IMG/VR virus record: IMGVR_UViG_2609459833_000005
Coordinates: 1-21,924 of that record
Length of the DNA: 21,924 nt
DNA from: a virus
Lineage: Duplodnaviria; Heunggongvirae; Uroviricota; Caudoviricetes
Reading direction: 5' to 3' (one strand)
Part shown: positions 4,247-15,851 of the stretch, in pieces
Layout of the letters: the number at the start of each line of letters is the position of its first letter
Numbering within the stretch: the first letter of the stretch is position 1
Notes under the pieces: generated by a model
Told to the model about the DNA's origin: nothing
Seen by the model: only the letters and a program-made list of their open reading frames with translations
Database searches by the model: none
Program-made: the position numbers and the translations under genes

Positions 4247-6685
4247 TTAAAAATCAGCCTGACTCGGGATCAGTTTTTGCCAGATAACTGAAACGTATTT
4301 TGCCTGGTAACGGGCGTCATCAAGTGCATTATGGCGCTCACCTTCGAATGGAATAGCCGTTCTGGCATCGAAGTCTATGGCTTTCCCCAGCTCAACGATT
4401 GTGCGTACATCGCGATCGTTGTAGTAACGCCACGGGCAGGGGATCCCCTGCCGTTCGTATGAACGGCGCAAAATCGTGTTTTCGAAGTTGGCTCCATTTC
4501 CCCAGACCTGAACAAAAAATTCACCGGAGTTTTCGTCGATAAATTCCCGCAATTGTAACAGTGCATCATCTAACGGGATTTCATCGGTCATAATGGCAGA
4601 CTGCGCTTCACGTGATTGCTTCAGCCACCTTTTAATGACGTCACGATCAATGACTCCGCCAGCAGTTTCCAGATCGATAGTCTTACTAAATTCCGGTCCC
4701 ATATCTCCGGTTTGCGGATCGAAAAATATTGCATCTATTGAGATAATCGGGGCATCAGGATTTTTGCCCATTGTTTCAAGGTCAATCATCAGATGGTGCC
4801 ACAACCTGCTGGTGGATGTGCTTTTACGATGACCGTTCACCTTAATTAAGGGATTTGCTGTCTCGCCTATTTCATTATTGTCATTGGCATGTTGATCGCC
4901 TTCGGTGCACTCCTTGTTCGGGAGTCCGGCACTTTCTATTTCCTCTGGATCTTTTTCCCGGGCTTCATCCTGGCTTTCTTCGTTGAATGTCTCCTGGTAG
5001 GTTGCGTCACCCATCACTGCGCCACAATCAGGGCAGTTACCACCACCAGTCTGATTGCATGCGGTACAAACTTTTTCCTCTTCCTGTTGCACGACTGGTT
5101 CAGGTTGTTTCGTTTCTGGCTCGTTTTGTAACGCATTTGGGCTGTTTTGTTCCGCTTTCTGGTCGTTCTGTTCCGATTCTTGCTGGTTCTGGTTTACAGA
5201 ATCGCGGGTTTCAATCCCCTTTACCCATTTCGGATCATTCGGGTCGCTAATCCCTGCAACAAATTCTCCGCGAGAGGCAGCAAGCAACTTATCGGCGTCA
5301 GGCTGGCTGATATTGGCTGCCTGCATAATTTTGTTTACTTCGTCAGCGGTAACTTTTACCTGTGACTTGTCATCCAGCGGCTGCGGGTCCTGATGATGTT
5401 CAACTGTATCCGCTGCCATTGTTTCAGCCGTTGCCTGTTCATCTGCCATTGCGCCAGATGGTTGCGGGTTATCTTCATCATTTTTTTCTTCTTCTGTTTT
5501 GCACTCAGCAGCCAGTCCGCCGTTAATTTCTTCCAGGATATCTTTTTCCGGTGTATGCCGGGCAGCCATGAGCGTTTCAGCTGTGGGATTCTCGTGATCA
5601 GTTTCTGTCAGGTTGGCATTGATATACCCCTGAAGGCGCCCCGGGTAGTGATAAAACTCAGGGTGGGCGCTTCGGATAAGTGCAAAAATAGCTGCGCGGG
5701 AATAGTCCAGGATACCAGGGGTTGCGCGAAGTGCTGCGGACCATTCCCTGAACGGACTTTCTTTTTTCAGGACGATTTCTTTTGCGCGACGATAAACGCT
5801 GCCCGGAATTTCATAAATATTAAAATCCATCGGAAGTGTGGCTGCTGCAATCTCCACATCCAGCGCATCGAAGGTGTGTACTAAATTCGGATTGCGATCG
5901 GTTTTGTTCCCGCCACCGGCATTTGCACCGGAAGCCGTACGGGTGATACGCGAAACACGATTTCCTTTCATCCACTCTTTTGTCAGCAGACCCCGATCAG
6001 TGTAATCAGCGTCCAGGTATGCCTCGAAAAAAGCAGTTATCAGTCCCAGGTCTGAATTACCGGGATTAGGGAAAACTTTGTCAGTGTCGCGTACCAGTTT
6101 GTGAAGGTCGCGAATCTCCAGCGGGTCGAGCAGCTTTGTTTTGTGAGAAATGGCCAGGGCAGTAACAGCCGGCAGTTCTTCCGCCCGTGCTATATGTAAT
6201 GCCTGAAGTTCTTCCCGTGCAACGTGCGTTACTGGTTTTTCGCTGCTGTGTTGCGCAAGCCAGCGAATGGGCAGCTCCTGACCAGAAACCGGCAGGAGCA
6301 TATTCTCCTCAATCTCCGTCATGTCTTCGCCGTTGACGTTGGTATTGTCAGTACTGGCTGGTTTCTCCTGCACGGAGGGAGAGGGCGCGATAAATACCAT
6401 TGTAATGCCATCTTCCCCGCCTTTTTCGTATCGGTTGCAGAATTCGGTATCAAACACGCCTTCAGGTGGAAGGTCATTCACAACGGGTAAATGGACGCGA
6501 ACGGGTTTTTTAAAGTCGTCTTCATCATAATCGTTGTCATCCATTGCGGTAATGCAGCGGGAGATGGCAACAGATAATTTTTTTGCTGTAGTCCAGTAAA
6601 AACCACCTTTAATTCCCAGACGTTTTCTGACTTTGTCATTTTTTGCTTCGCAATATAGCGCAAATTCTTCTTTATCAGTGCTCAT
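4247..6685 (-). CDS. Exodeoxyribonuclease VIII-like prophage protein with C-terminal DEDDh (DnaQ-like) 3'-5' exonuclease domain
   Basis: 812-aa ORF; C-terminus has MIDLETMG (Exo I D-x-E) and [10 protein letters not shown] (Exo III with His); internal zinc ribbon [16 protein letters not shown]; long acidic low-complexity linker. Position matches the early-left recombination gene of lambdoid prophages. Confidence 0.6.
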
Positions 6686-6777
6686 TGATAAACCTCATTA
6701 CAGATTTAAGGGTGAACAAATCCCTGCCATTGCTGGCATTTTTAATCCGTTGGTATGGTGTTAATATGGCTGGAGGG

Positions 6778-6966
6778 TTATCCAGCCGGTGTTTCGTTAT
6801 TCAGGTACAGCGATACTTTTTTTACCGGGAGGCATTCACCAGAAATTTTTTGCTCGTCTCTTGCCTGGAGGCAGGATTCTTTACTGGCATAAATTCCGGT
6901 AATCACATTCTGTGATTCACCCGTTATAAGAAAAACCGTCATCATCAGTGCAAATGCTGAAGTCAT
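6778..6966 (-). CDS. Small hypothetical protein, positional analogue of Qin YdfD
   Basis: 62-aa ORF overlapping the dicB-like stop (ATGA overlap); hydrophobic N-terminus MTSAFALMMTVFLITG. Assignment by synteny only. Confidence 0.4.
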   Translation of the reverse strand: MTSAFALMMTVFLITGESQNVITGIYASKESCLQARDEQKISGECLPVKKVSLYLNNETPAG

Positions 6967-7151
6967 TGACGCTCTCCGAAAATACCAAGTTCAAGAAGAG
7001 CAATTCGGGAAAGTATGGAATTATCATTGAGCAGATAAGGCTCATATTTCCTCATATTAATGGCATCTTCAGTAAACTCCCGGTTACTGAGCAGAACACC
7101 AATATCAAAACAACCTTCAGACGTATTAACGTTTGGTAATAACGTTTCCAT
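6963..7151 (-). CDS. dicB: DicB-like cell division inhibitor (Kil-type)
   Basis: 62-aa ORF METLLPNVNTSEGCFDIGVLLSNREFTEDAIN... closely matches the remembered N-terminal half of E. coli DicB (MKTLLPNVNTSEGCFEIG...TEDAINKRK); same length. Confidence 0.7.
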   Translation of the reverse strand: METLLPNVNTSEGCFDIGVLLSNREFTEDAINMRKYEPYLLNDNSILSRIALLELGIFGERQ

Positions 7152-7329
7152 TATCGCGTCCTCAACAATGAATTTTGTGATGCAGTGCCTGGTGCCTCCA
7201 GGTGACGTTAACCAGTTAACAATTAACGCCGGGTTAGTTGATGCTCGTTACGCCAGTAAAAGACCGCCTTACTGCTTTAACTGTTCCGCGTGCGCATAGC
7301 CGCATTCACCGCATCACAAAATTCACTTT

Positions 7330-7385
7330 AAAAAGGGTGGCAGAGCAGTCACGGAGTAGAACTGATGCCACCAAATACTACACAT
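7330..7385 (-). ncRNA. dicF: DicF-like small RNA (ftsZ-targeting sRNA of Qin-type prophages) ending in an intrinsic terminator
   Basis: Minus strand reads uuugguggcaucaguucuacuccgugacugcucugccacccuuuuu: stem GGUGGCA/UGCCACC plus U-run, nearly identical to remembered DicF; sits about 180 nt upstream of dicB-like gene as in Qin. Ends approximate. Confidence 0.55.
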
Positions 7386-7685
7386 GGGTATTGTGGCGGG
7401 GCTGTCACTTAAGCGTATGGTCAACCTGACGACCCGGTGCATTTTCTGGAGCAATGGAGGAAGCCCCAGCCATACTTACCGCCGCGCCATTTCGCGGACT
7501 GCCACAACCGGAAGTGCACGGTCGAAGAAATTTAACGACAAGCTTTATATGCAAAGGAATCTCGCCGTGCGCTTTCGTGTTGTGTGCCTGCTTTTAACCA
7601 CGTCAGGCGAGGTGGTTTCCGTCATTCCCCAATAACAGGAAATCTGTATAATCTGGATATCCCCAACAACAGGAAGGTGTTTTAT

Positions 7686-7844
7686 ATGGTGGTTCAAAAG
7701 AATTGTTCAGGTACTGGTAAGCCTGCGGACAGGGCGGACATTCCGAATACCAGGAAACATATACCTGAGAAAAACATTCGACCAAAACCATCTCCAGCTC
7801 CTTCAGAGGAGAGGGGGAACAGCAACAATCAAACAAGCAGGTGA
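7686..7844 (+). CDS. Possible 52-aa hydrophilic Pro/Lys/Arg-rich small protein immediately upstream of the 2-TM gene
   Basis: ATG at 7686 preceded by SD aggaagg (7671-7677, 8-nt spacer); stop 7 nt before the next start. Low-complexity product, coding status uncertain. Confidence 0.3.
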   Translation: MVVQKNCSGTGKPADRADIPNTRKHIPEKNIRPKPSPAPSEERGNSNNQTSR

Positions 7845-7850
7845 TGATAT

Positions 7851-8297
7851 ATGGACCGGGATGATATTCTTGACAGGGTTTTATATGGTTATTTTCTTGA
7901 ACAACTATTCTCTGTAGCGACTGGTCGTCTCGATAAACTTTTCTCAGTGGTGAGTATTATCCTCGGTTCATCTGTCATTGGTGGATTTATTCCTGAAGTT
8001 TCTGGAGTTCTCATTGTTGTGATAGCAACCGTTCAAACGATTTACGGATTCGGACAAAAGTCAGGTAACGCAATGAGAAAATCCGCAGAATATCTGCAGC
8101 TTTATGATGATGCAGAAAAATATTCCGATTCGGAATTGAAAATGCAGTTAAAGCTCCTGGAAAAAACAGATGATAATATTTGGTCGTCGCTTAAAGATAT
8201 CGCAATCTTAAAAACCCAGATCAAAATAGGAATCTCCGTAGAACAACAAGAGAAACTGTCTGCAAAATCCAAATTGATGCGATTCCTTTGTGGTTAG
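7851..8297 (+). CDS. Hypothetical two-transmembrane-helix membrane protein (candidate superinfection-exclusion or abortive-infection moron)
   Basis: 148-aa ORF in AT-rich DNA; SD aggtga 7 nt upstream; two adjacent hydrophobic helices (LFSVVSIILGSSVIGGFIPEV, SGVLIVVIATVQTIYGFG) then a charged helical C-terminal domain. Opposite strand to all flanking early genes. Confidence 0.7.
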   Translation: MDRDDILDRVLYGYFLEQLFSVATGRLDKLFSVVSIILGSSVIGGFIPEVSGVLIVVIATVQTIYGFGQKSGNAMRKSAEYLQLYDDAEKYSDSELKMQLKLLEKTDDNIWSSLKDIAILKTQIKIGISVEQQEKLSAKSKLMRFLCG

Positions 8298-8395
8298 GAA
8301 TACCCAGATTGTTAAAGAGCATGCCGAATGCTTACCCGTGTCCGGCGAACGTATTCCACTTCGCCTGTGGAGAACTCTTTAATTACTAACCTTCA

Positions 8396-8635
8396 TCAGT
8401 CAGAGTTTCTTGCTAACCAGCGACGCGCGCCAGCTTCCGTTTTAAACGTTTTGCTTCTGGTATACGTCATCGCGGTAAACGTGCCGTCCAGGTTGGGGAA
8501 TACTCCACATACCAGAGATTCGTTGTTGCCAAGCTCGATAGTATCCATGCTGACCTCATTTCCCCTTAACGCCGGGGTAGCGGAACTAAAAACCTGCTGC
8601 GCTGTTATACAAAGTGTTCCCGCCGTCATGTTCAT
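8396..8635 (-). CDS. Hypothetical early protein, first ORF of the leftward operon
   Basis: 79-aa ORF directly downstream of the leftward operator/promoter region; basic C-terminus TRSKTFKTEAGARRWLARNSD. Overlapping plus-strand ORF 8328-8657 judged less protein-like. Confidence 0.45.
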   Translation of the reverse strand: MNMTAGTLCITAQQVFSSATPALRGNEVSMDTIELGNNESLVCGVFPNLDGTFTAMTYTRSKTFKTEAGARRWLARNSD

Positions 8636-8728
8636 ACGCCTCGGGCTGGCTACTTAACCCCTGACCACTGCCGGGTAACTCGAAGTATTGCCCTGCATTC
8701 TGTGGGGAGGGTGGGTGATGAATAAACA

Positions 8729-8768
8729 ATAGCACTGCTATTTTATTCTGTTAAATAGTAATGCTATT
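8729..8768 (-). promoter_or_regulatory. Leftward early promoter with two repressor operators (OL-like)
   Basis: 15-bp palindromes AATAGCACTGCTATT (8729-8743) and AATAGTAATGCTATT (8754-8768), centres 25 bp apart. On the minus strand these overlap a -35-like TTTAAC and -10-like TATTGT reading toward 8635. Confidence 0.65.
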
Positions 8769-8784
8769 GTTTTTTGGAGGTAAG

Positions 8785-8807
8785 AAAAAAAAACCACCCG
8801 AAGGTGG
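8785..8807 (-). terminator. Rho-independent terminator after parE
   Basis: Hairpin ccacc-cgaa-ggtgg (8794-8807) followed on the minus strand by a 9-U run (8785-8793). Confidence 0.75.
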
Positions 8808-8823
8808 TTGTTGGTAGGAATGA

Positions 8824-9114
8824 TTAACAGCTTTTGTTTGGATACTGCCTTCGTGAGTGAACTACATTTACGATCTCGATGTTAGATGCTGTTACTCGGT
8901 AAAGTATTATGTAGTTAGGATGGGTCACTATCTCACGAAGGCCTAGAGCTCTTTCGCTTGGTGGATACAGGTAAGGGTGTTCAGTAAGTGACAAAACTGA
9001 TGTTTCAATGCGTATTTTTAGTCTACGTGCAGCGGGAGGGTTTTCCTTGGCAATATAGGCTACGATCTGACGCAAATCATCACGCGCAGAAGGTAGCCAT
9101 AAAATGGGCAGCAT
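8824..9114 (-). CDS. parE: ParE/RelE-superfamily type II toxin
   Basis: 96-aa ORF with ParE-like motifs (ARDDLRQIVAYIAKENPPAARRL, YIILYRV, IEIVNVVHSRR); start overlaps the stop of the upstream 63-aa ORF. Confidence 0.8.
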   Translation of the reverse strand: MLPILWLPSARDDLRQIVAYIAKENPPAARRLKIRIETSVLSLTEHPYLYPPSERALGLREIVTHPNYIILYRVTASNIEIVNVVHSRRQYPNKSC

Positions 9115-9305
9115 TACTCACTCCTGTTCGTCGAAGCTATTTGCGCAATAAGGTTTTCCATTTCAGCCATTACTTCGTCATGCGGAATTGCAGGACGGGG
9201 GTCTGCGAGGCTTGCTGCCACTTTGGTGCGTAACCATTCGTTATAGCTGTTTTCTTGTTCGATTGTTTCAAATTCTGAAATTATCGGGGAAAGGACTGTA
9301 CTCAT
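9114..9305 (-). CDS. Small antitoxin partner of ParE (PaaA-like, 63 aa)
   Basis: 63-aa acidic ORF with strong SD gaggagg 8 nt upstream; translationally coupled to parE. Size and context match the PaaA antitoxins of three-component PaaR-PaaA-ParE systems described in E. coli O157 prophages; family assignment from memory. Confidence 0.6.
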   Translation of the reverse strand: MSTVLSPIISEFETIEQENSYNEWLRTKVAASLADPRPAIPHDEVMAEMENLIAQIASTNRSE

Positions 9306-9322
9306 GTTCTAACCTCCTCAGA

Positions 9323-9823
9323 TTAGGCGCGAAGACCTTTTTGCGCCTCTAGCCACCGCGCAACGGTTTCTTCAATTGATTCTTTTTTCTCCTTCATTTC
9401 CTTAAGCATTTTCTCTTTGTCTTCTTTTGGGAAAGCCCTGAACGTCTGGATCAAATCTCGCTCTATAGGTTCTATATTAAACGGAAGTTCGTTTTCCGAT
9501 TGTTCCATCTCTGCGGGTAAAGCGACAACATTATCCTGCTGCAGTTCTTGGGGGTACATCCTTACAATTCGTAACAAGTCTGCCATATCTGGTCTAATTG
9601 ACTCAGGCGGAACTTGTAGCAACCCAGCGAACTTGATAACAGCCTCTAGATTTAAAGGTGTCTGACCATTTAGATAATGGCTTACTGCCCCTTGTGTCGA
9701 AAAACCCAGAATTTCTGCCGCACGCTCTTGGGTTAACCCAAGTTGAGTTTTTTTCGTCGTCCAGATTTCTTTCAGTCTCTGGGCGGCTTGCAGGTCGATC
9801 TCTGACAGGGGTTTTCTTTTCAT
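9323..9823 (-). CDS. Prophage repressor / transcriptional regulator, HTH XRE-family (PaaR- or DicA-like), no autocleavage domain
   Basis: 166-aa ORF; N-terminal HTH (LGLTQERAAEILGFSTQGAVSHYLNG); C-terminus charged and helical with no S24 peptidase Ser/Lys or Ala-Gly motifs; divergent from the cro-like gene across an operator-bearing intergenic region. Confidence 0.75.
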   Translation of the reverse strand: MKRKPLSEIDLQAAQRLKEIWTTKKTQLGLTQERAAEILGFSTQGAVSHYLNGQTPLNLEAVIKFAGLLQVPPESIRPDMADLLRIVRMYPQELQQDNVVALPAEMEQSENELPFNIEPIERDLIQTFRAFPKEDKEKMLKEMKEKKESIEETVARWLEAQKGLRA

Positions 9824-9858
9824 ACCTTCAATTCTAATAAGATTATTAATCTCTTTGA

Positions 9859-9898
9859 AATAGCAGTGCTATTTACTTTTAAAAATAACAATGCTATT
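9859..9898 (+). promoter_or_regulatory. Rightward early promoter with two repressor operators (OR-like), shared with the divergent repressor promoter
   Basis: 15-bp palindromes AATAGCAGTGCTATT (9859-9873) and AATAACAATGCTATT (9884-9898), centres 25 bp apart, overlapping -35-like TTTACT (9872-9877) and -10-like TATTAA (9895-9900); same architecture as the OL region. Confidence 0.7.
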
Positions 9899-9930
9899 AA
9901 TATTCATGGTCACATAACATGAGGTGAACA

Positions 9931-10194
9931 ATGAATCTTGGAGAATATTTGCATCATTCCCGTATAACCCAGAAAGATTTTGCTGAAATTGTTGGGGTAA
10001 CCCAAGGGATGGTAAGCCATGTTATTACTGGACGGGCGAAACTTACGGGGGGGAAAGTTTTACGCTGGTGTGAAGCAACAGGGTGGGTAGTGACCCCGCA
10101 CGAGATTGATAGCAGTACTTACCCCAACCCAACCGATGGCATACCTGTTGACTATCAGGCTAACACACAACCCGCGCTGGGAGTTGATTCATGA
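9931..10194 (+). CDS. Cro-like HTH regulator
   Basis: 87-aa ORF with HTH (ITQKDFAEIVGVTQGMVSHVITG), first gene transcribed rightward from the operator region; SD gaggtga upstream. Confidence 0.75.
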   Translation: MNLGEYLHHSRITQKDFAEIVGVTQGMVSHVITGRAKLTGGKVLRWCEATGWVVTPHEIDSSTYPNPTDGIPVDYQANTQPALGVDS

Positions 10195-10616
10195 AAATCA
10201 AGCATGAACACATCCGCATGGCGATGAATGTCTGGGCGCATCCGGACGGCGAAAAAGTACCGGCTGCGAAAATTACCAAAGCGTATTTCGAGCTGGGAAT
10301 GACGTTCCCGGAACTGTATGACGACAGCCATCCGGAAGCCCTGGCCCGTAATACCCAGAAAATTTTCCGTTGGCTGGATAAAGACACCCCTGATGCTGTT
10401 GAAAAAATGCAGGCTCTGTTACCGGCGATCGAAAAGGCGATGCCGCCTTTGCTGGTGGCCCGTATGCGCAGTCACAGCTCTGAATATTACCGTGAGATCG
10501 TCGAACGGAGGGATCGGCTGGGGAAAGATGTGGATGATTTTGTCGCAGCGGCGATCGCCTGGGGCACCCTGACTAACAGTGGTGGTCAGCCTGGTAATGC
10601 TGTTGTCGTGCATTGA
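10191..10616 (+). CDS. YdaT-like (CII-like) protein
   Basis: 141-aa ORF beginning MKIKHEHI and ending ...AVVVH, resembling remembered Rac YdaT; located directly after cro as in Rac (racR-ydaS-ydaT). Confidence 0.5.
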   Translation: MKIKHEHIRMAMNVWAHPDGEKVPAAKITKAYFELGMTFPELYDDSHPEALARNTQKIFRWLDKDTPDAVEKMQALLPAIEKAMPPLLVARMRSHSSEYYREIVERRDRLGKDVDDFVAAAIAWGTLTNSGGQPGNAVVVH

Positions 10617-10678
10617 CCAACAATATTCATGCCGGATTTCTTCCGGATGTTCGAGGGTAAAGTTCGGTATCAGATGAG

Positions 10679-11722
10679 GTGAGTATGGCTAATGCCTGGC
10701 TCAGATTGTGGCATGACATGCCAAATGATCCCAAATGGCGAACCATTGCCAGGGTCTCAGGACAGCCAATCGCAACAGTGATGGCGGTGTATATCCACCT
10801 TCTGGTGAGTGCGTCACGAAATGTCACGACATGTCACGGCGTGTCACTACGTGGTCACATTGATGTCACGACGGAAGATTTAGCAAGTGCGCTTGATGTG
10901 ACGGAAGACGTAATTGATTCAATTTTGCATGCAATGCAGGGGCGGGTTCTGGATGGTGACCTTATTTCCGGATGGGAAAAACGTCAGGTGCTGAAAGAGG
11001 ACAATGGTAACGTTTCGCAAACGGCAAAATCCCCGGCAGAGCGCAAGAGAGCGCAGCGGGAGCGCGAAAAGCTGCGGAAATATGATGCTGATTGTCACGA
11101 TGAGTCACGACGTGTCACGCATCTGTCACGACAAGTCACGACAGATAAAGATACAGATACAGAATTAAACCCCACACATAACGCGCGCATGCGCGAGAGT
11201 GCTCCAACCGGTGAGTCGCATGGTGCGCCGTTGCAGACAGCCGAACCTGAATACCTGGACGGCCTGAGCGAACCGATCGGGAAATTTTCGATGACTACTG
11301 TCTGGCAGCCGTCGTCGGATTTTCGACAACGGGCAGCAGTGTGGGGTATGGCTCTGCCTGAGCCGGAATTTACACCTGCTGAGCTTGCCGCATTCCGGGA
11401 TTACTGGATGGCGGAGGGGAAGGTTTTCACGCAGGTTCAGTGGGAGCAGAAATTTGCCCGCCACGTGCAGCACGTCAGGGCACAGGTAAAACCAGTCAGC
11501 AAGGGGGTAAGCCATGCAGCATCAGGTGGCACGGCATCACGGGCAGTTCAGGAAATCCGGGCAGCACACGAACAGTGGGAACGTGACAACGGATTTATCA
11601 GCAACGGAAACGGCCTGGAAGCTGTGGGAGCTTATGGGGGAGGTGTATTCGAACCGCTGGACACAGAAGAACGGGGCCGCACCTTCGAAGCTCTGGATTG
11701 CCCAGATTGGCACGATGACTGA
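10679..11722 (+). CDS. Replication initiation protein (lambda O-like / YdaU-like), contains the putative phage origin iterons
   Basis: 347-aa ORF immediately upstream of a P-like gene; two clusters of GTCACGA repeats inside the coding sequence, as in lambda O/ori. Confidence 0.55.
   Translation: MSMANAWLRLWHDMPNDPKWRTIARVSGQPIATVMAVYIHLLVSASRNVTTCHGVSLRGHIDVTTEDLASALDVTEDVIDSILHAMQGRVLDGDLISGWEKRQVLKEDNGNVSQTAKSPAERKRAQREREKLRKYDADCHDESRRVTHLSRQVTTDKDTDTELNPTHNARMRESAPTGESHGAPLQTAEPEYLDGLSEPIGKFSMTTVWQPSSDFRQRAAVWGMALPEPEFTPAELAAFRDYWMAEGKVFTQVQWEQKFARHVQHVRAQVKPVSKGVSHAASGGTASRAVQEIRAAHEQWERDNGFISNGNGLEAVGAYGGGVFEPLDTEERGRTFEALDCPDWHDD
10811..10874 (+). repeat. Iteron cluster 1: six direct copies of GTCAC(G/T)(A/G) at about 10-bp spacing
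   Basis: gcGTCACGAa atGTCACGAc atGTCACGGc gtGTCACTAc gtgGTCACAt tgatGTCACGAcgg, read directly from the sequence. Confidence 0.8.
11093..11143 (+). repeat. Iteron cluster 2: five direct copies of GTCACG(A/C) at 10-11 bp spacing, followed by an AT-rich stretch (candidate ori)
   Basis: tGTCACGA tgaGTCACGAc gtGTCACGC atctGTCACGAc aaGTCACGAc, then agataaagatacagatacagaattaaa. Confidence 0.8.
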
Positions 11723-12176
11723 ACAGCAAATCCGGCTGGTCTGCCGTCAGTGCATGGACCGCTGCCGGGCGGGTGAAACGTGGCCCCCGGACCTGGCTGA
11801 GTTTGTTGCGCTGATTTCGGAGAGTGGGGCAAATCCATTTGGTCTTACGGTGGATGCAGTGATGGAAGAGTACCGGCGCTGGCGCAATGAATCCTGGCGA
11901 TACGACGGGAGTGATAAATACCCGTGGCCACAGCCTGTGCTGTACCACATCTGCCTCGAAATGCGTACCAGAGGGATTGAGCGCCAGATGACGCAGGGTG
12001 AGTTAAAACGACTTGCGGAACGGCAACTGACGAAATGGGCAAAGCATGTTGGTAACGGGATGAGTGTTCCGCCAGTGCGACGACAACTGGAAGGGGCGAA
12101 ACACCCGCAAGGGCCAACGCCAATTGAACGGCTGAAACAGGAATACGAACGCCGGAAGGCAGCTGGTTTTATTTGA
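11514..12176 (+). CDS. Lambda P-like replication protein (helicase loader); start uncertain (11514 with strong SD, or 11634, or 11715)
   Basis: Segments TMTEQQIRLVCRQ...WPPDLAEFVALI, YPWPQPVLYHICLEMR and TQGELKRLAERQL align with remembered lambda P (ITTMEQVNAGM...SPGQFVAWC, YPWKSNAHYWLVTNLYQNMR, TDAELRRKAADEL). SD agggggt 5 nt before the ATG at 11514. Confidence 0.6.
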   Translation: MQHQVARHHGQFRKSGQHTNSGNVTTDLSATETAWKLWELMGEVYSNRWTQKNGAAPSKLWIAQIGTMTEQQIRLVCRQCMDRCRAGETWPPDLAEFVALISESGANPFGLTVDAVMEEYRRWRNESWRYDGSDKYPWPQPVLYHICLEMRTRGIERQMTQGELKRLAERQLTKWAKHVGNGMSVPPVRRQLEGAKHPQGPTPIERLKQEYERRKAAGFI

Positions 12177-12191
12177 ATCTGAGAAACGATT

Positions 12192-12935
12192 TTGTCGGAG
12201 GAAATATTAATGGAAACCGTATTTGACGCACTGAAAGCACTGAAAAGAGCCTCTTCACAGGTAGTGGCGGCCCGCCTTGGAATCAGCCGTGAAGATGCGG
12301 TCAACGAACTGTGGAAACTGAAGCGCCGCGGTGAAGCGGATAACAAGGGTTCGATGTGGCGGCTGATTCAGGCTGGTGAAAGTGAACCGATGTCACCGGT
12401 ACCGAAAGTGACAGCGCAAATGCTGACTGAGGCGATTGAACAACATGGCCCACAAACGGCGGATGAGCTGGCACTGATGTTCGGGATTACCTCCCGCCGG
12501 GCGAATTCATCGCTGGCCATGGCAATCAGCAAAGGGCGTCTGATTCGCGTGAATCAGGGCGGTAAATTTCGTTACTGCATACCGGGCGCTGATTTACCGG
12601 CAGAGCCGGAAGCTGCATCCGTAGCGGAAACCGATGGTAAAGCCTTTCCTCAGCCAGCAGGTGTTGCGTTACCTGTCCGGGAAGCAGAAACACAGGAAGA
12701 AATAAAAACGGAAAGTGTGGCGGTCACAGTGCAGTCACAGCCGTCGTTCACCAGAAAACATCCGGATGGTCTGATTTTACCATCGCTGCATGTGGCTAAC
12801 CGCGAGCTGCGCCGGGCAAAAGGTCAGGTTCAGAAGTGGGAGCGAGTCTGCGCCGCGCTGCGGGAGCTGAACAAGCACCGGGATATTGTTCGACAGATTG
12901 TCGATTCATCCGGTCGTATTGTGTCGGAAAAGTGA
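12192..12935 (+). CDS. Hypothetical protein with two winged-helix-like DNA-binding segments
   Basis: 247-aa ORF; HTH-like stretches ([52 protein letters not shown]); no family recognised. Confidence 0.5.
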
Positions 12936-12950
12936 TTGCCGGAGGCGCTT

Positions 12951-13343
12951 ATGGCAAAAGTATTTACACCAGAAGAGCGGGAAGAAGTGAAGGCGCGCAT
13001 TGTGGAATTCGTGCGCCTGAGCGGACGAGAAACTTTTCGACAACTGGCAGATAAAACGGGTGTCAGTAAGACCGCTATTCGTCGTTTATCTGGTGCGCTT
13101 GCGGCCAGTGGTGATGTCTGGCTCTCTGGTTGCGGGGTATTTCCATCAGAGCAGGCGTATCGCGTATGGCGTAAGACACCGGAGAAGGCTGCTGACCCGA
13201 CACTGATTCGAAAGTTACCTGACGGAGAAATACGTCGTTACAACAGACGGCAGAACATAATTTGTCGTGAGAGCAGGAGGAGCGAAGTTATGCAGCGTGT
13301 GCTGGCGTTCTATCGGGGAAACTTTCAGGAGGTGATGGAGTGA
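12951..13343 (+). CDS. Hypothetical protein with putative HTH
   Basis: ATG at 12951 with SD ggagg 5 nt upstream (the ORF track's 12936 start is a TTG); DNA-binding-like segment FRQLADKTGVSKTAIRRLSG. Confidence 0.5.
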   Translation: MAKVFTPEEREEVKARIVEFVRLSGRETFRQLADKTGVSKTAIRRLSGALAASGDVWLSGCGVFPSEQAYRVWRKTPEKAADPTLIRKLPDGEIRRYNRRQNIICRESRRSEVMQRVLAFYRGNFQEVME

Positions 13344-13690
13344 GGGTGAGAGTTTATATTGCCGGTCCAATGACGGGATATGAAAATTTCAACCGCGAGG
13401 CGTTTCACAGGGCGGAAGATGCGCTGGCTCGTAAAGCAGTTCAGGCATTTTGCGATGTTGTTGGCGACAGCACCGAGGTTATCTGCGAGGAGATTGGGCG
13501 AGATGGCGTTCTGGTTATTTTGGAGGCAATGAAGGCAACAGGAAATATGCCAGCCACCGATGCTTTCCTGTCTGAAGTGCGGGCGCAGGGGGTAGAGATG
13601 ATGCGCGAACATCCATCAATCAAACTTTGTTCTTTGACGCACATATGTGATGAGTTAGCCGCCCAGCTTCGCAAAGGAGGCAACCAGTGA
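13340..13690 (+). CDS. Hypothetical protein; N-terminus carries a nucleoside 2-deoxyribosyltransferase/DUF4406-like YIAGPMTG motif
   Basis: 116-aa ORF overlapping the upstream stop; only the first ~35 residues resemble that family. Confidence 0.4.
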   Translation: MRVRVYIAGPMTGYENFNREAFHRAEDALARKAVQAFCDVVGDSTEVICEEIGRDGVLVILEAMKATGNMPATDAFLSEVRAQGVEMMREHPSIKLCSLTHICDELAAQLRKGGNQ

Positions 13691-13911
13691 GCGGAAAAAG
13701 AATGACTAACAGAGAGCTTGTCGATGCCGCGATTAAGCTTGCTGGTGATTTTTATTCAATGATGGGGTACACGCATCGCCCAGGCTTCAAATATTGGGAG
13801 TCTCCTCACCCGCAAGAGCAACTGGTATTTCAAATGGCCTGCCGTGCTTTTGAGGTTATTCGCGGTTCTGATGTGATGGACGCCGTTGCCGACTTGGAGG
13901 ATGAAGAGTGA
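13687..13911 (+). CDS. Hypothetical small protein
   Basis: 74-aa ORF translationally coupled to both neighbours; no recognised motif. Confidence 0.4.
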   Translation: MSGKRMTNRELVDAAIKLAGDFYSMMGYTHRPGFKYWESPHPQEQLVFQMACRAFEVIRGSDVMDAVADLEDEE

Positions 13912-14603
13912 GCGAGATTAACTATCAGGCACTGCGTGAAAAGGCAGAGAAAGCAACTAAAGGAAGCTACATCGTAGGGCATACATCTGTTAACCAGCAC
14001 GGCAATTTAACAGGAGTTTTTGTTTGTCAAAAATGGAAAGGAGAACCCGGTGGCGTGATTGCCGAATGTCATGTTAACTGCCTGATTGAATCAGATGCTC
14101 AGGCTTATGCAAACGCTGAATTTATAGCAGATGCTAACCCAGCTACCGTACTGGCGCTACTGGATGAACGGGAAAGAAACCAGCAATACATCAAACGCCG
14201 CGACCAGGAGAACGAGGATATTGCGCTTACGGTTGGGAAGCTGAGAGTTGAGCTTGAGGAGACAAAATCAAAACTCAACGAGCAGCGTGAGTATTACGAA
14301 GGTGTTATCTCGGATGGGAGTAAGCGCATAGCAGAACTGGAGGAGCGGGAAATAAAACCAGCCAAAGGCGAAGTTCTTGTCGTTGTATCTGGTTTTACTG
14401 GTTGCGGGAAAAGCGCCATTGCCGGGGAAATAGAAATCGCGATGAAGGCTATTGGTGTACCGGTTCAGTGGACTAATGGCGATGCGGAAAAGCGCATGAC
14501 AGGAGCTGACTGGCTGACAGCGATTGAGATGTACAAACCAACAGTGCGCATCGTGGAAGTTAATGTGCCACACGCCGCGGGCATTCGCATCAAAGGAGAG
14601 TGA
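13908..14603 (+). CDS. Ead/Ea22-like coiled-coil prophage protein (tentative)
   Basis: 231-aa ORF with N-terminal YQALREKAEKATKG motif and a central coiled-coil segment; family recalled from lambdoid ea-region proteins, not verified. Confidence 0.4.
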   Translation: MSEINYQALREKAEKATKGSYIVGHTSVNQHGNLTGVFVCQKWKGEPGGVIAECHVNCLIESDAQAYANAEFIADANPATVLALLDERERNQQYIKRRDQENEDIALTVGKLRVELEETKSKLNEQREYYEGVISDGSKRIAELEEREIKPAKGEVLVVVSGFTGCGKSAIAGEIEIAMKAIGVPVQWTNGDAEKRMTGADWLTAIEMYKPTVRIVEVNVPHAAGIRIKGE

Positions 14604-14604
14604 T

Positions 14605-15120
14605 ATGGCGTTAACACACCACGAACTCTGTCAGATTGCGTACAAGTTCCTTAAGCGCAACGGGTTCAAGGTTTGCTTTCATGACCGCTTTGTTGCTGTA
14701 ACCAGTACCGGAGAACAGCCAGATGCTATGGGATTCAGAAATTCAGCATCATGCCTGATAGAGGCGAAGTGTTCTCGTGCTGACTTGTTGGCAGATAGAA
14801 AAAAGCGTTTCCGTAAAAATCCCTCACTTGGCATGGGCGACTGGCGATTCTTTATTAGTGAGCCGGGAATTATTTCAGTTGAGGATTTACCACCTGGCTG
14901 GGGATTACTTCACGTTGTTAACGGAAGAGTACGGAAAGTACATGGGTGGCCCAGGGGTAATTGCTGTTGGGGTAATCCTGACGATAAGCCATTTACTGGA
15001 AATAAGCAGGTTGAATGCGATTACATGTTATCTGCATTAAGGCGCATGGAGTTGAGAGGGCACCTTAATGAAATATATGACGGTGTAATTGTTAATAAGA
15101 AAGAAGGAAACGCGGCATGA
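14605..15120 (+). CDS. PD-(D/E)xK nuclease-superfamily protein
   Basis: 171-aa ORF starting at the ATG at 14605 (SD aaaggagag); motif GEQPDAMGF...CLIEAKCS fits the E...PD...(D/E)xK catalytic signature; Cys/Trp-rich C-terminal half. Confidence 0.5.
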   Translation: MALTHHELCQIAYKFLKRNGFKVCFHDRFVAVTSTGEQPDAMGFRNSASCLIEAKCSRADLLADRKKRFRKNPSLGMGDWRFFISEPGIISVEDLPPGWGLLHVVNGRVRKVHGWPRGNCCWGNPDDKPFTGNKQVECDYMLSALRRMELRGHLNEIYDGVIVNKKEGNAA

Positions 15121-15191
15121 CCACTATTACCAAAGATTGACTGCTGACAATCCAGCATTGGCGCGAAACATACGGACCGGGTAGCAACGTT

Positions 15192-15407
15192 GTGCTTCCA
15201 GCAGAAGAAGCGGAAGAGCTGGCACGGATTGCGCTGGCATCACTGGCAGCAGTATCGGATGAACGAGCAGCCTATGAATTATTTATGGAGAAGCGTTTCG
15301 GAGAATCTGTAGATCGCCGCAGAGCAAAAAATGGCGATAGAGAATACATGGCATGGGATATGGCGCTTGGCTGGATTATCTGGTGTCACCGCGCCGCCAT
15401 GCTTTAG
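15192..15407 (+). CDS. Hypothetical small protein (GTG start), coding status uncertain
   Basis: 71-aa ORF overlapping the next ORF by 55 nt; no motif recognised. Confidence 0.3.
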   Translation: MLPAEEAEELARIALASLAAVSDERAAYELFMEKRFGESVDRRRAKNGDREYMAWDMALGWIIWCHRAAML

Positions 15408-15736
15408 GCTGGAAACTTTGGGAAAATAAGGGTTCGTCAACCAATAATTTTCGGGAAATCTCGGAAACGTCAACCAATAATTTTCGGGAAATCTCGGAAA
15501 CGTCAACCAACTATCCGGTAACTCCGGATGGTTGGATAAGCTGTAGTGAGCGAATGCCGGATGATGGTCAGCACGTAATTATTTTATGTGATGGCGCATT
15601 CGTTCTTTATGCGCAATATCGAGACGGTGAGTTTTTTGATGTAGTCCGTAATGGTGATGAATTTTTCGAAACACAGAGCCGCAATGTAACCGACTGGATG
15701 CCGTTACCAGAACCGCCGCAGGAGGTGCGCCAATGA
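15353..15736 (+). CDS. DUF551-family phage protein with an N-terminal 11-residue tandem repeat; start uncertain
   Basis: C-terminal domain ends in the DUF551-type W-x-P-L-P-E-P-P motif (TDWMPLPEPPQ); N-terminal region contains STNNFREISET twice, encoded by a 33-bp tandem repeat. Confidence 0.5.
   Translation: MGYGAWLDYLVSPRRHALGWKLWENKGSSTNNFREISETSTNNFREISETSTNYPVTPDGWISCSERMPDDGQHVIILCDGAFVLYAQYRDGEFFDVVRNGDEFFETQSRNVTDWMPLPEPPQEVRQ
15435..15510 (+). repeat. 33-bp direct tandem repeat, 2.3 copies (cgtcaaccaataattttcgggaaatctcggaaa)
   Basis: Two exact 33-bp units (15435-15467, 15468-15500) and a 10-bp partial third; in frame with the DUF551 ORF. Confidence 0.85.
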
Positions 15737-15816
15737 TCTGGCCTGAAGCATTTGCAATTACAGGCGTTGCTATGGCTATCGCTTTTTTAGTATATGTTAT
15801 TTGTCGGTGTGGGTAA
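15733..15816 (+). CDS. 27-aa hydrophobic single-TM peptide (MIWPEAFAITGVAMAIAFLVYVICRCG)
   Basis: Below the ORF-track length cutoff; ATG overlaps the DUF551 stop (ATGA) with SD ggagg 8 nt upstream. Confidence 0.4.
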   Translation: MIWPEAFAITGVAMAIAFLVYVICRCG

Positions 15817-15851
15817 AAGCGTTCGCCGGGATTAACACCAAAGGAGGGAAT

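Follow-up and report, generated by a model that had tools for sequence, protein, structure and literature searches.

A 33-bp in-frame tandem repeat of differing copy number in the linker-coding DNA of a disrupted lambdoid-prophage early gene of Escherichia coli

Minisatellite or VNTR loci in bacterial coding regions, of the kind used in MLVA, are built of perfect head-to-tail units whose length is a multiple of three, and their copy number changes through slipped-strand mispairing. The array described here resembles them in its exact 33-nt units, in having an ancestral single copy that lies between short direct repeats, in the occurrence of one, two or three copies among close relatives, and in its location within low-complexity, probably disordered, protein-coding DNA. 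It differs from coding VNTRs in that its copy numbers are very low and vary in one disrupted allele lineage only; to our knowledge, the locus is not in established use for typing. Phase-variable contingency loci also carry a repeat tract within a gene, the length of which is altered by slippage. Unlike those loci, the array has a unit that keeps the frame, resides in a gene that is already off, plays no part in promoter spacing and is invariant in intact copies of the gene.

Two further kinds of system are relevant to this locus. Mosaic lambdoid early proteins of the Ead/Ea22 and DUF551 type are assembled from "portable domains", and DUF551 is one such domain of unknown function within Ea22-type phage proteins (PMC10834534). 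The gene under study shares with these proteins a two-domain mosaic architecture with C-terminal DUF551, adjoins an Ead/Ea22-like gene, and lies between replication genes and hokD/DUF968/RusA. Its linker (AAMLQxGNFRENKxSSTNNFREIxETSTNxP), like theirs, is found between many different N- and C-terminal domains, but the copy here is broken and its linker-coding DNA has expanded. Origin iterons and operator repeats are likewise direct DNA repeats in the prophage early region. In contrast to these elements, the units of the array belong to conserved coding sequence, occur once in relatives and lack an initiator or repressor context.

The window, the whole stretch of 21,924 nucleotides that was analysed (IMG/VR record IMGVR_UViG_2609459833_000005), is an E. 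coli lambdoid prophage integrated beside potC/potD. Its genes include those for an integrase, an excisionase, an exonuclease, dicB, the DicF sRNA, a repressor, replication proteins, an Ead/Ea22-like protein and DUF551, and it further holds a hokD/sok toxin-antitoxin system, DUF968, RusA and antiterminator-like genes and three tRNAs. Positions 15300-15800 are 100% identical to the chromosome of E. coli strain SW070917 (NZ_CM129862.1), though the two genomes differ elsewhere. SW070917 has an IS4 element at window positions ~6724-6735 that the window lacks, and the overlap of about 12 bp at this site resembles a target duplication. The two sequences are 99.97% identical over 6724-19253, after which SW070917 lacks a 2.2-kb segment of the window (19254-21418) that holds a 352-aa ORF (19364-20422) and three tRNA genes (20463-20711). 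The sRNA STnc100 is encoded at 21543-21748, just downstream of this segment.

The preliminary description of this DNA reported an exact 33-bp tandem repeat, with two copies and a partial third, in frame within a DUF551 gene. Tandem Repeats Finder and direct reading of the sequence agree with this report. The program gave the array at 15435-15510 its top score within the window (152), with a 33-bp period, 2.3 copies, 100% matches, 0 indels and the consensus unit CGTCAACCAATAATTTTCGGGAAATCTCGGAAA. At an offset of 33 there are 43 matches in a row, and a chance origin within 22 kb is ruled out. The array reads in frame with the DUF551 domain downstream and encodes STNNFREISET twice, and its partial third copy is the downstream arm of a 10-bp direct repeat in the single-unit ancestor. 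An inverted repeat abuts the 3' side of the array, overlaps the array end and sits at the 5' edge of the DUF551 module (Table 1). This element folds as a DNA hairpin of -11 kcal/mol (z = -6.5) and appears in the RNA fold too; alignment places it in intact alleles as well. The core of the inverted repeat, TCCGG-TAACT-CCGGA, is also found at the DUF551 boundary of phage SJ46.

Table 1. Features of the repeat array and the surrounding gene, in window coordinates.
Feature	Position	Strand	Evidence
Disrupted two-domain prophage gene (N-terminal helical domain, linker, DUF551)	15117..15736	+	alignment with O157:H7 Xuzhou21; PGAP
Nonsense mutation R8*, CGA to TGA at codon 8	15138..15140	+	alignment with Xuzhou21; in-silico repair
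Remnant ORF-A, 71 aa, GTG start	15192..15407	+	open reading frame list
Remnant ORF-B, 127 aa, ATG start (the "DUF551 gene" of the preliminary description)	15353..15736	+	open reading frames; hmmscan; alignment
Nonsense mutation Q97*, CAG to TAG at codon 97, end of N-terminal domain	15405..15407	+	alignment with Xuzhou21; in-silico repair
Older degenerate copy of the unit (ancestral AACTTTCGGGAAAATAAGGGTT..., NFRENKGS), bearing the 1-bp deletion	15414..15434	+	repeat search
1-bp deletion, C of ancestral codon 102 (CGG), -1 frameshift	between 15419 and 15420	+	alignment; in-silico repair
Exact 33-bp repeat, unit 1	15435..15467	+	sequence read directly; Tandem Repeats Finder
Exact 33-bp repeat, unit 2 (extra copy, absent from intact orthologues)	15468..15500	+	alignment; Tandem Repeats Finder
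Partial third copy CGTCAACCAA	15501..15510	+	sequence read directly; alignment
29-nt inverted repeat CCAACTATCCGG-TAACT-CCGGATGGTTGG, encodes NYPVTPDGW	15507..15535	.	DNA hairpin fold; RNA fold
DUF551 (PF04448) domain-coding segment	15530..15721	+	hmmscan; AlphaFold2 β-domain, pLDDT 93-97

The gene that carries the array is orthologous to the intact gene for a 195-aa protein (WP_000207955.1 / P0015), the start of which corresponds to 15117. Compared with the WP_000207955.1 gene of E. coli O157:H7 Xuzhou21, the differences that matter are the TGA, the TAG, the lost C and exactly one additional 33-bp unit. When these differences were repaired in silico, the resulting translation was exactly that of P0015, an intact protein of O157:H7 isolates, and the repaired DNA was a single synonymous base apart from the closest intact allele (P0015, loci L021-L025). 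All three lesions are present in 29 of the 29 disrupted-allele loci examined, and PGAP annotates the same sequence in SW070917 as a DUF551 pseudogene ("frameshifted; internal stop"). The term "pseudogene" is an annotation judgement rather than a measurement, because gene callers accept both of the ORFs into which the lesions divide the gene at its domain boundary. Programmed recoding was considered as well and rejected: the sequence contains no canonical slippery heptamer, the shift site comes after the TAG, and a further TGA occupies codon 8.

The two remnant ORFs divide the ancestral protein between them. ORF-A covers residues 26-96 of the ancestral N-terminal domain, and its exact 71-aa product is called on 90 contigs. 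Codons 1-23 of ORF-B lie outside the ancestral frame and overlap ORF-A, and the ancestral linker and DUF551 domain are read from 15422 on; the exact ORF-B product (P0121) is present on 57 contigs. PF04448 matches residues 60-123 of ORF-B over its full length (model positions 1-68 of 68; E = 3e-21, 76.5 bits against a gathering cut-off of 22, hmmscan). The assignment to DUF551 made in the preliminary description is therefore upheld for the domain, which is matched in full, but not for the gene, which carries two nonsense mutations and a -1 frameshift, is called a pseudogene by PGAP and does not form an intact ORF comparable to those of its orthologues. Nor does the repeat lie in an N-terminal linker, as had been supposed: it sits between the two domains, and the beginning of ORF-B is an out-of-frame remnant. 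The neighbouring genes at 13908-15120 also look degraded. According to PGAP, the Ead/Ea22-like gene of SW070917 is incomplete and the next hypothetical gene is frameshifted. This same upstream hypothetical gene is interrupted by an IS3-family element (HTH_Tnp_1 plus rve) in some of the metagenome relatives.

To place the unit within the protein, we used an AlphaFold2 model of the intact product built with 150 diverse homologues. The model contains a helical N-domain (residues 1-98) and a β-rich DUF551 domain (pLDDT 93-97), and residues 91-121 have pLDDT values below 50 and no secondary structure. The unit corresponds to residues 108-118, inside this predicted disordered linker, and is thus predicted to encode part of a flexible connection between the domains. 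Directly upstream of the array lies an older copy of the unit that is about 73-76% identical and encodes NFRENKGSST; a repeat search aligns three 33-nt copies in register, with 76% and 67% identity. The intact linker accordingly reads GNFRENKGSST, the older diverged copy, and then NNFREISETST, the unit. Phage SJ46, which is P1-like, and most family representatives have kept this older copy. We also looked for extra units in the SJ46 homologue and found none, its added length being another inserted domain.

Across the family representatives, many unrelated N- and C-terminal domains are linked through the module AAMLQxGNFRENKxSST-NNFREIxETST-NxP. The linker has two 11-aa units in most representatives and one in just five, and its length has therefore changed before. 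At the DNA level, the linker segment (15389-15477) is ~91-94% identical in otherwise unrelated genes of the P1-like phage-plasmids SJ46 and P7, Stx1 phages and Shigella phages, with the SJ46 counterpart (locus L003) at 1000-1100. An E. coli genome holds as many as 5 copies of the linker-coding DNA. Phage early proteins exchange domains at a junction that the conserved linker sequence marks, and the DNA that encodes this linker may serve as a recombination joint for domain shuffling.

Copy number was compared across relatives, as the preliminary description had proposed, and alleles with one, two and three units were found. Among 5426 complete E. coli genomes, the unit occurs at 1299 places in 634 genomes; it is single at 1298 of the 1299, and the unit-to-unit junction is found solely in SW070917. 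The junction was sought with a 54-nt query (27 + 27 nt), which single-unit loci cannot seed twice. This query replaced a 66-nt two-unit query that had been uninformative, since two overlapping pieces were joined and single-unit loci scored as 100% covered. A contraction-junction query had no match in the complete E. coli genomes, and a 66-nt query that spans the TAG and the deletion matched SW070917 only. Exact scans for the junction returned no hits among GTDB representative genomes, none among IMG/VR viral contigs, and a single contig in JGI metagenomes, which has the same lesions and 2.3 copies.

Protein collections gave a wider view of the same locus. In a collection of 5.8 billion clusters, the top protein matches carry a single STNNFREISET unit, with the exception of one cluster. 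The exceptional cluster contains P0121, its point variants P0001 and P0125, and P0124, a 138-aa protein with three exact units. The 4 contigs that encode P0124 come from two studies and at least three samples. A one-unit form of disrupted ORF-B also exists (P0276), and the disrupted allele is represented by 38 contigs with one unit, about 60 with two and 4 with three; four-unit and zero-unit forms of disrupted ORF-B were both absent from the protein collection. We then edited the five commonest intact backbones, several of which are seen on about 1000 contigs each, to carry two or zero units, and found none of the edited sequences among about 15 billion proteins. Intact alleles are fixed at one unit, and the variation seen is confined to the disrupted allele.

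The sequences that flank the array bear on how often its length has changed. Outside the array, 554 nt are identical in 19 disrupted loci with two or three units (of 29). Right-flank haplotypes are shared across unit numbers: one occurs with one and two units, a second with one, two and three, and a third with two and three. Because the same haplotypes carry different unit numbers, the array must have changed in copy number several times independently, or recombination must have taken place near it, and such a pattern is expected of an unstable array. Copy number is thus polymorphic among close relatives, with the proviso that the one-unit disrupted contigs are all short (under 8 kb) and come from short-read assemblies; some of them could represent two-unit arrays that collapsed in assembly, and the polymorphism would then be smaller than it looks. 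The earlier suggestion of a recent duplication of the slippage type is supported, as is that of a differing copy number.

Tandem repeats are prone to mis-assembly, and SW070917 was deposited as a whole-genome-shotgun chromosome, so we considered whether the duplication could be a sequencing or assembly artefact. This explanation is exceedingly improbable. The window shares its two-unit allele with a complete genome from which it is set apart by the IS4 insertion and the 2.2-kb indel. The allele is found in addition in the JGI metagenome contig, in four NCBI draft assemblies and in many ENA metagenomes, with dozens of NCBI and ENA contigs carrying it, and the array, at 76 bp, does not reach the length of a typical Illumina read.

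The single-unit alleles suggest how the duplication may have arisen. In Xuzhou21 and in every other single-unit allele, a 23-nt core is flanked on both sides by CGTCAACCAA, and this direct-repeat substrate can be read directly from the alignments. Misalignment between the two 10-bp arms, which lie 33 bp apart, through replication slippage or template switching would duplicate the unit and would yield exactly the product seen. RecA-independent rearrangements between short direct repeats, expansions included, have been documented in E. coli (PMC7145654). Once a first duplication had occurred, the 43 bp of repeated homology would make later gains and losses much easier and more frequent. It is the anatomy of the sequence that points to slippage. 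Two additional structures were examined in this connection. Hairpin-assisted slippage inside the unit was rejected, because the quasi-palindrome TTTTCGGGA/TCTCGGAAA reaches just -1.2 kcal/mol as DNA, no better than shuffled sequence, though it does fold as RNA via G-U pairs. The inverted repeat at 15507-15535 is not sufficient alone, because the intact, invariant alleles have it too.

We infer the following order of events, with the lesions first and the duplication second. An intact two-domain prophage gene would have been inactivated in one lineage, after which a rare first slippage between the 10-bp repeats would have produced two units. The longer repeat would then have grown to three units and probably shrunk back to one. 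These copy-number changes are most likely neutral, because the unit specifies disordered linker and belongs to a broken gene. On this evidence, the array is very probably a small in-frame minisatellite in the linker DNA of a decaying lambdoid-prophage early gene, without a switching or DNA-binding function.

The lesions themselves raise the question of whether selection has acted on the locus. Relative to P0015 (loci L021-L025), the allele has accumulated two nonsense mutations, one frameshift, one in-frame duplication and only one synonymous change. The three substitutions are all C/T differences, and the deletion removes a C. Stop codons are created by 4.6% of all possible substitutions and by 8.9% of C→T changes, and two or more nonsense mutations among three substitutions would be expected in roughly 0.6-2% of cases under neutral decay, an estimate that involves small numbers and a post hoc comparison. 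The excess of inactivating changes could hint at selection for inactivating the gene or for splitting it.

If the gene were split rather than lost, ORF-A and ORF-B would both work, ORF-B would be translated from the ATG at 15353, and the 11-aa units would tune or diversify the DUF551 protein, in the manner of a contingency-like locus that acts via length and not frame. Both ORFs are long open frames that gene finders call on dozens of contigs, and the break falls exactly at the domain boundary. Inactivating or splitting changes exceed silent ones, and identical haplotypes differ in unit number. Two- and three-unit alleles are, moreover, 100% identical outside the array across several prophage backgrounds, but a young lineage explains this identity equally well. 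We could read no convincing Shine-Dalgarno sequence at the ATG, and residues 1-23 of ORF-B are nonsense sequence from a shifted frame. The segment that holds the unit is predicted to be disordered and to have no structure, PGAP calls the locus a pseudogene, and intact genes, where function could matter, never vary. Taken together, these points make a working split gene unlikely. A related proposal is that selection favoured the dismantling of the DUF551 fusion, by inactivation or splitting, in one E. coli lineage and that the changing array modulates a still-expressed standalone DUF551 protein; we consider this slightly less likely again.

A neutral minisatellite also has to be weighed against switching and regulation, both of which were raised in the preliminary description. 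Phase variation fails as an explanation because the unit is a multiple of three (3 x 11 nt), the gene is already off and intact copies are invariant. A change of array length never switches the frame, and the array is internal to the ORF, where it does not alter promoter spacing. Functional copies of the gene show no variation, since intact alleles all have one unit.

In the regulatory reading, the repeats would be DNA or RNA elements, such as binding sites, iterons or structured RNA, upstream of a shorter true DUF551 gene. Each unit does contain a minus-strand promoter-like match (TTGACG/AATTAT), and the RNA fold of 15400-15540 has a z-score of -3.9. The promoter-like matches reach only 9 of 12 positions, however, and occur at chance level (4 found against 2.2±1.5 expected), so a promoter or operator was rejected. 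The fold signal is explained by base pairing of one unit with its identical neighbour and by the inverted repeat next to the array, the latter of which intact alleles share, and a DNA hairpin within the unit is no more stable than in shuffled sequence. A known RNA family was likewise rejected, as an Rfam search gave no match at the locus. Iterons are conserved in number across relatives and occupy non-coding or origin DNA, but this unit is single-copy at nearly all places and is read in one conserved frame as part of proteins with many different architectures. Finally, translation from 15554, the sole in-frame ATG beyond the array, would cost the DUF551 domain its first 8 residues. Protein-binding sites or other regulatory elements are accordingly very improbable here, and the suggestion that the array contains them is not sustained.

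As a probably neutral in-frame minisatellite, the array carries little weight for biology at large and is a new instance of a well-known kind. It does provide an example of 10-bp microhomology that seeds a first duplication and then an unstable array, with the one-, two- and three-unit stages all present in public data. The array could be used as a fine-scale marker of this prophage lineage, and annotators should not take the 127-aa ORF for an intact DUF551 gene.

Several other features of the window were recorded. Two clusters of 10-bp tandem repeats of the GTCACGAC type (10813-10858 and 11093-11163) lie within the replication-initiator-like gene at 10679-11722, which is annotated as a DnaT-like ssDNA-binding protein; these repeats look like candidate origin iterons. 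A complete hokD/sok type I toxin-antitoxin system is found at 16033-16357, just downstream of the DUF551 remnant, with a sok match of 117.6 bits in Rfam and a Hok/Gef ORF at 16145-16357. The DicF antisense sRNA (7335-7386, minus strand; Rfam, 62 bits) adjoins dicB, as is usual in defective lambdoid prophages of the Qin/Kim kind. An imperfect 21-bp tandem repeat (5114-5188; 3.5 copies, 71% matches) is located inside the gene for the 812-aa exonuclease, on the opposite strand.
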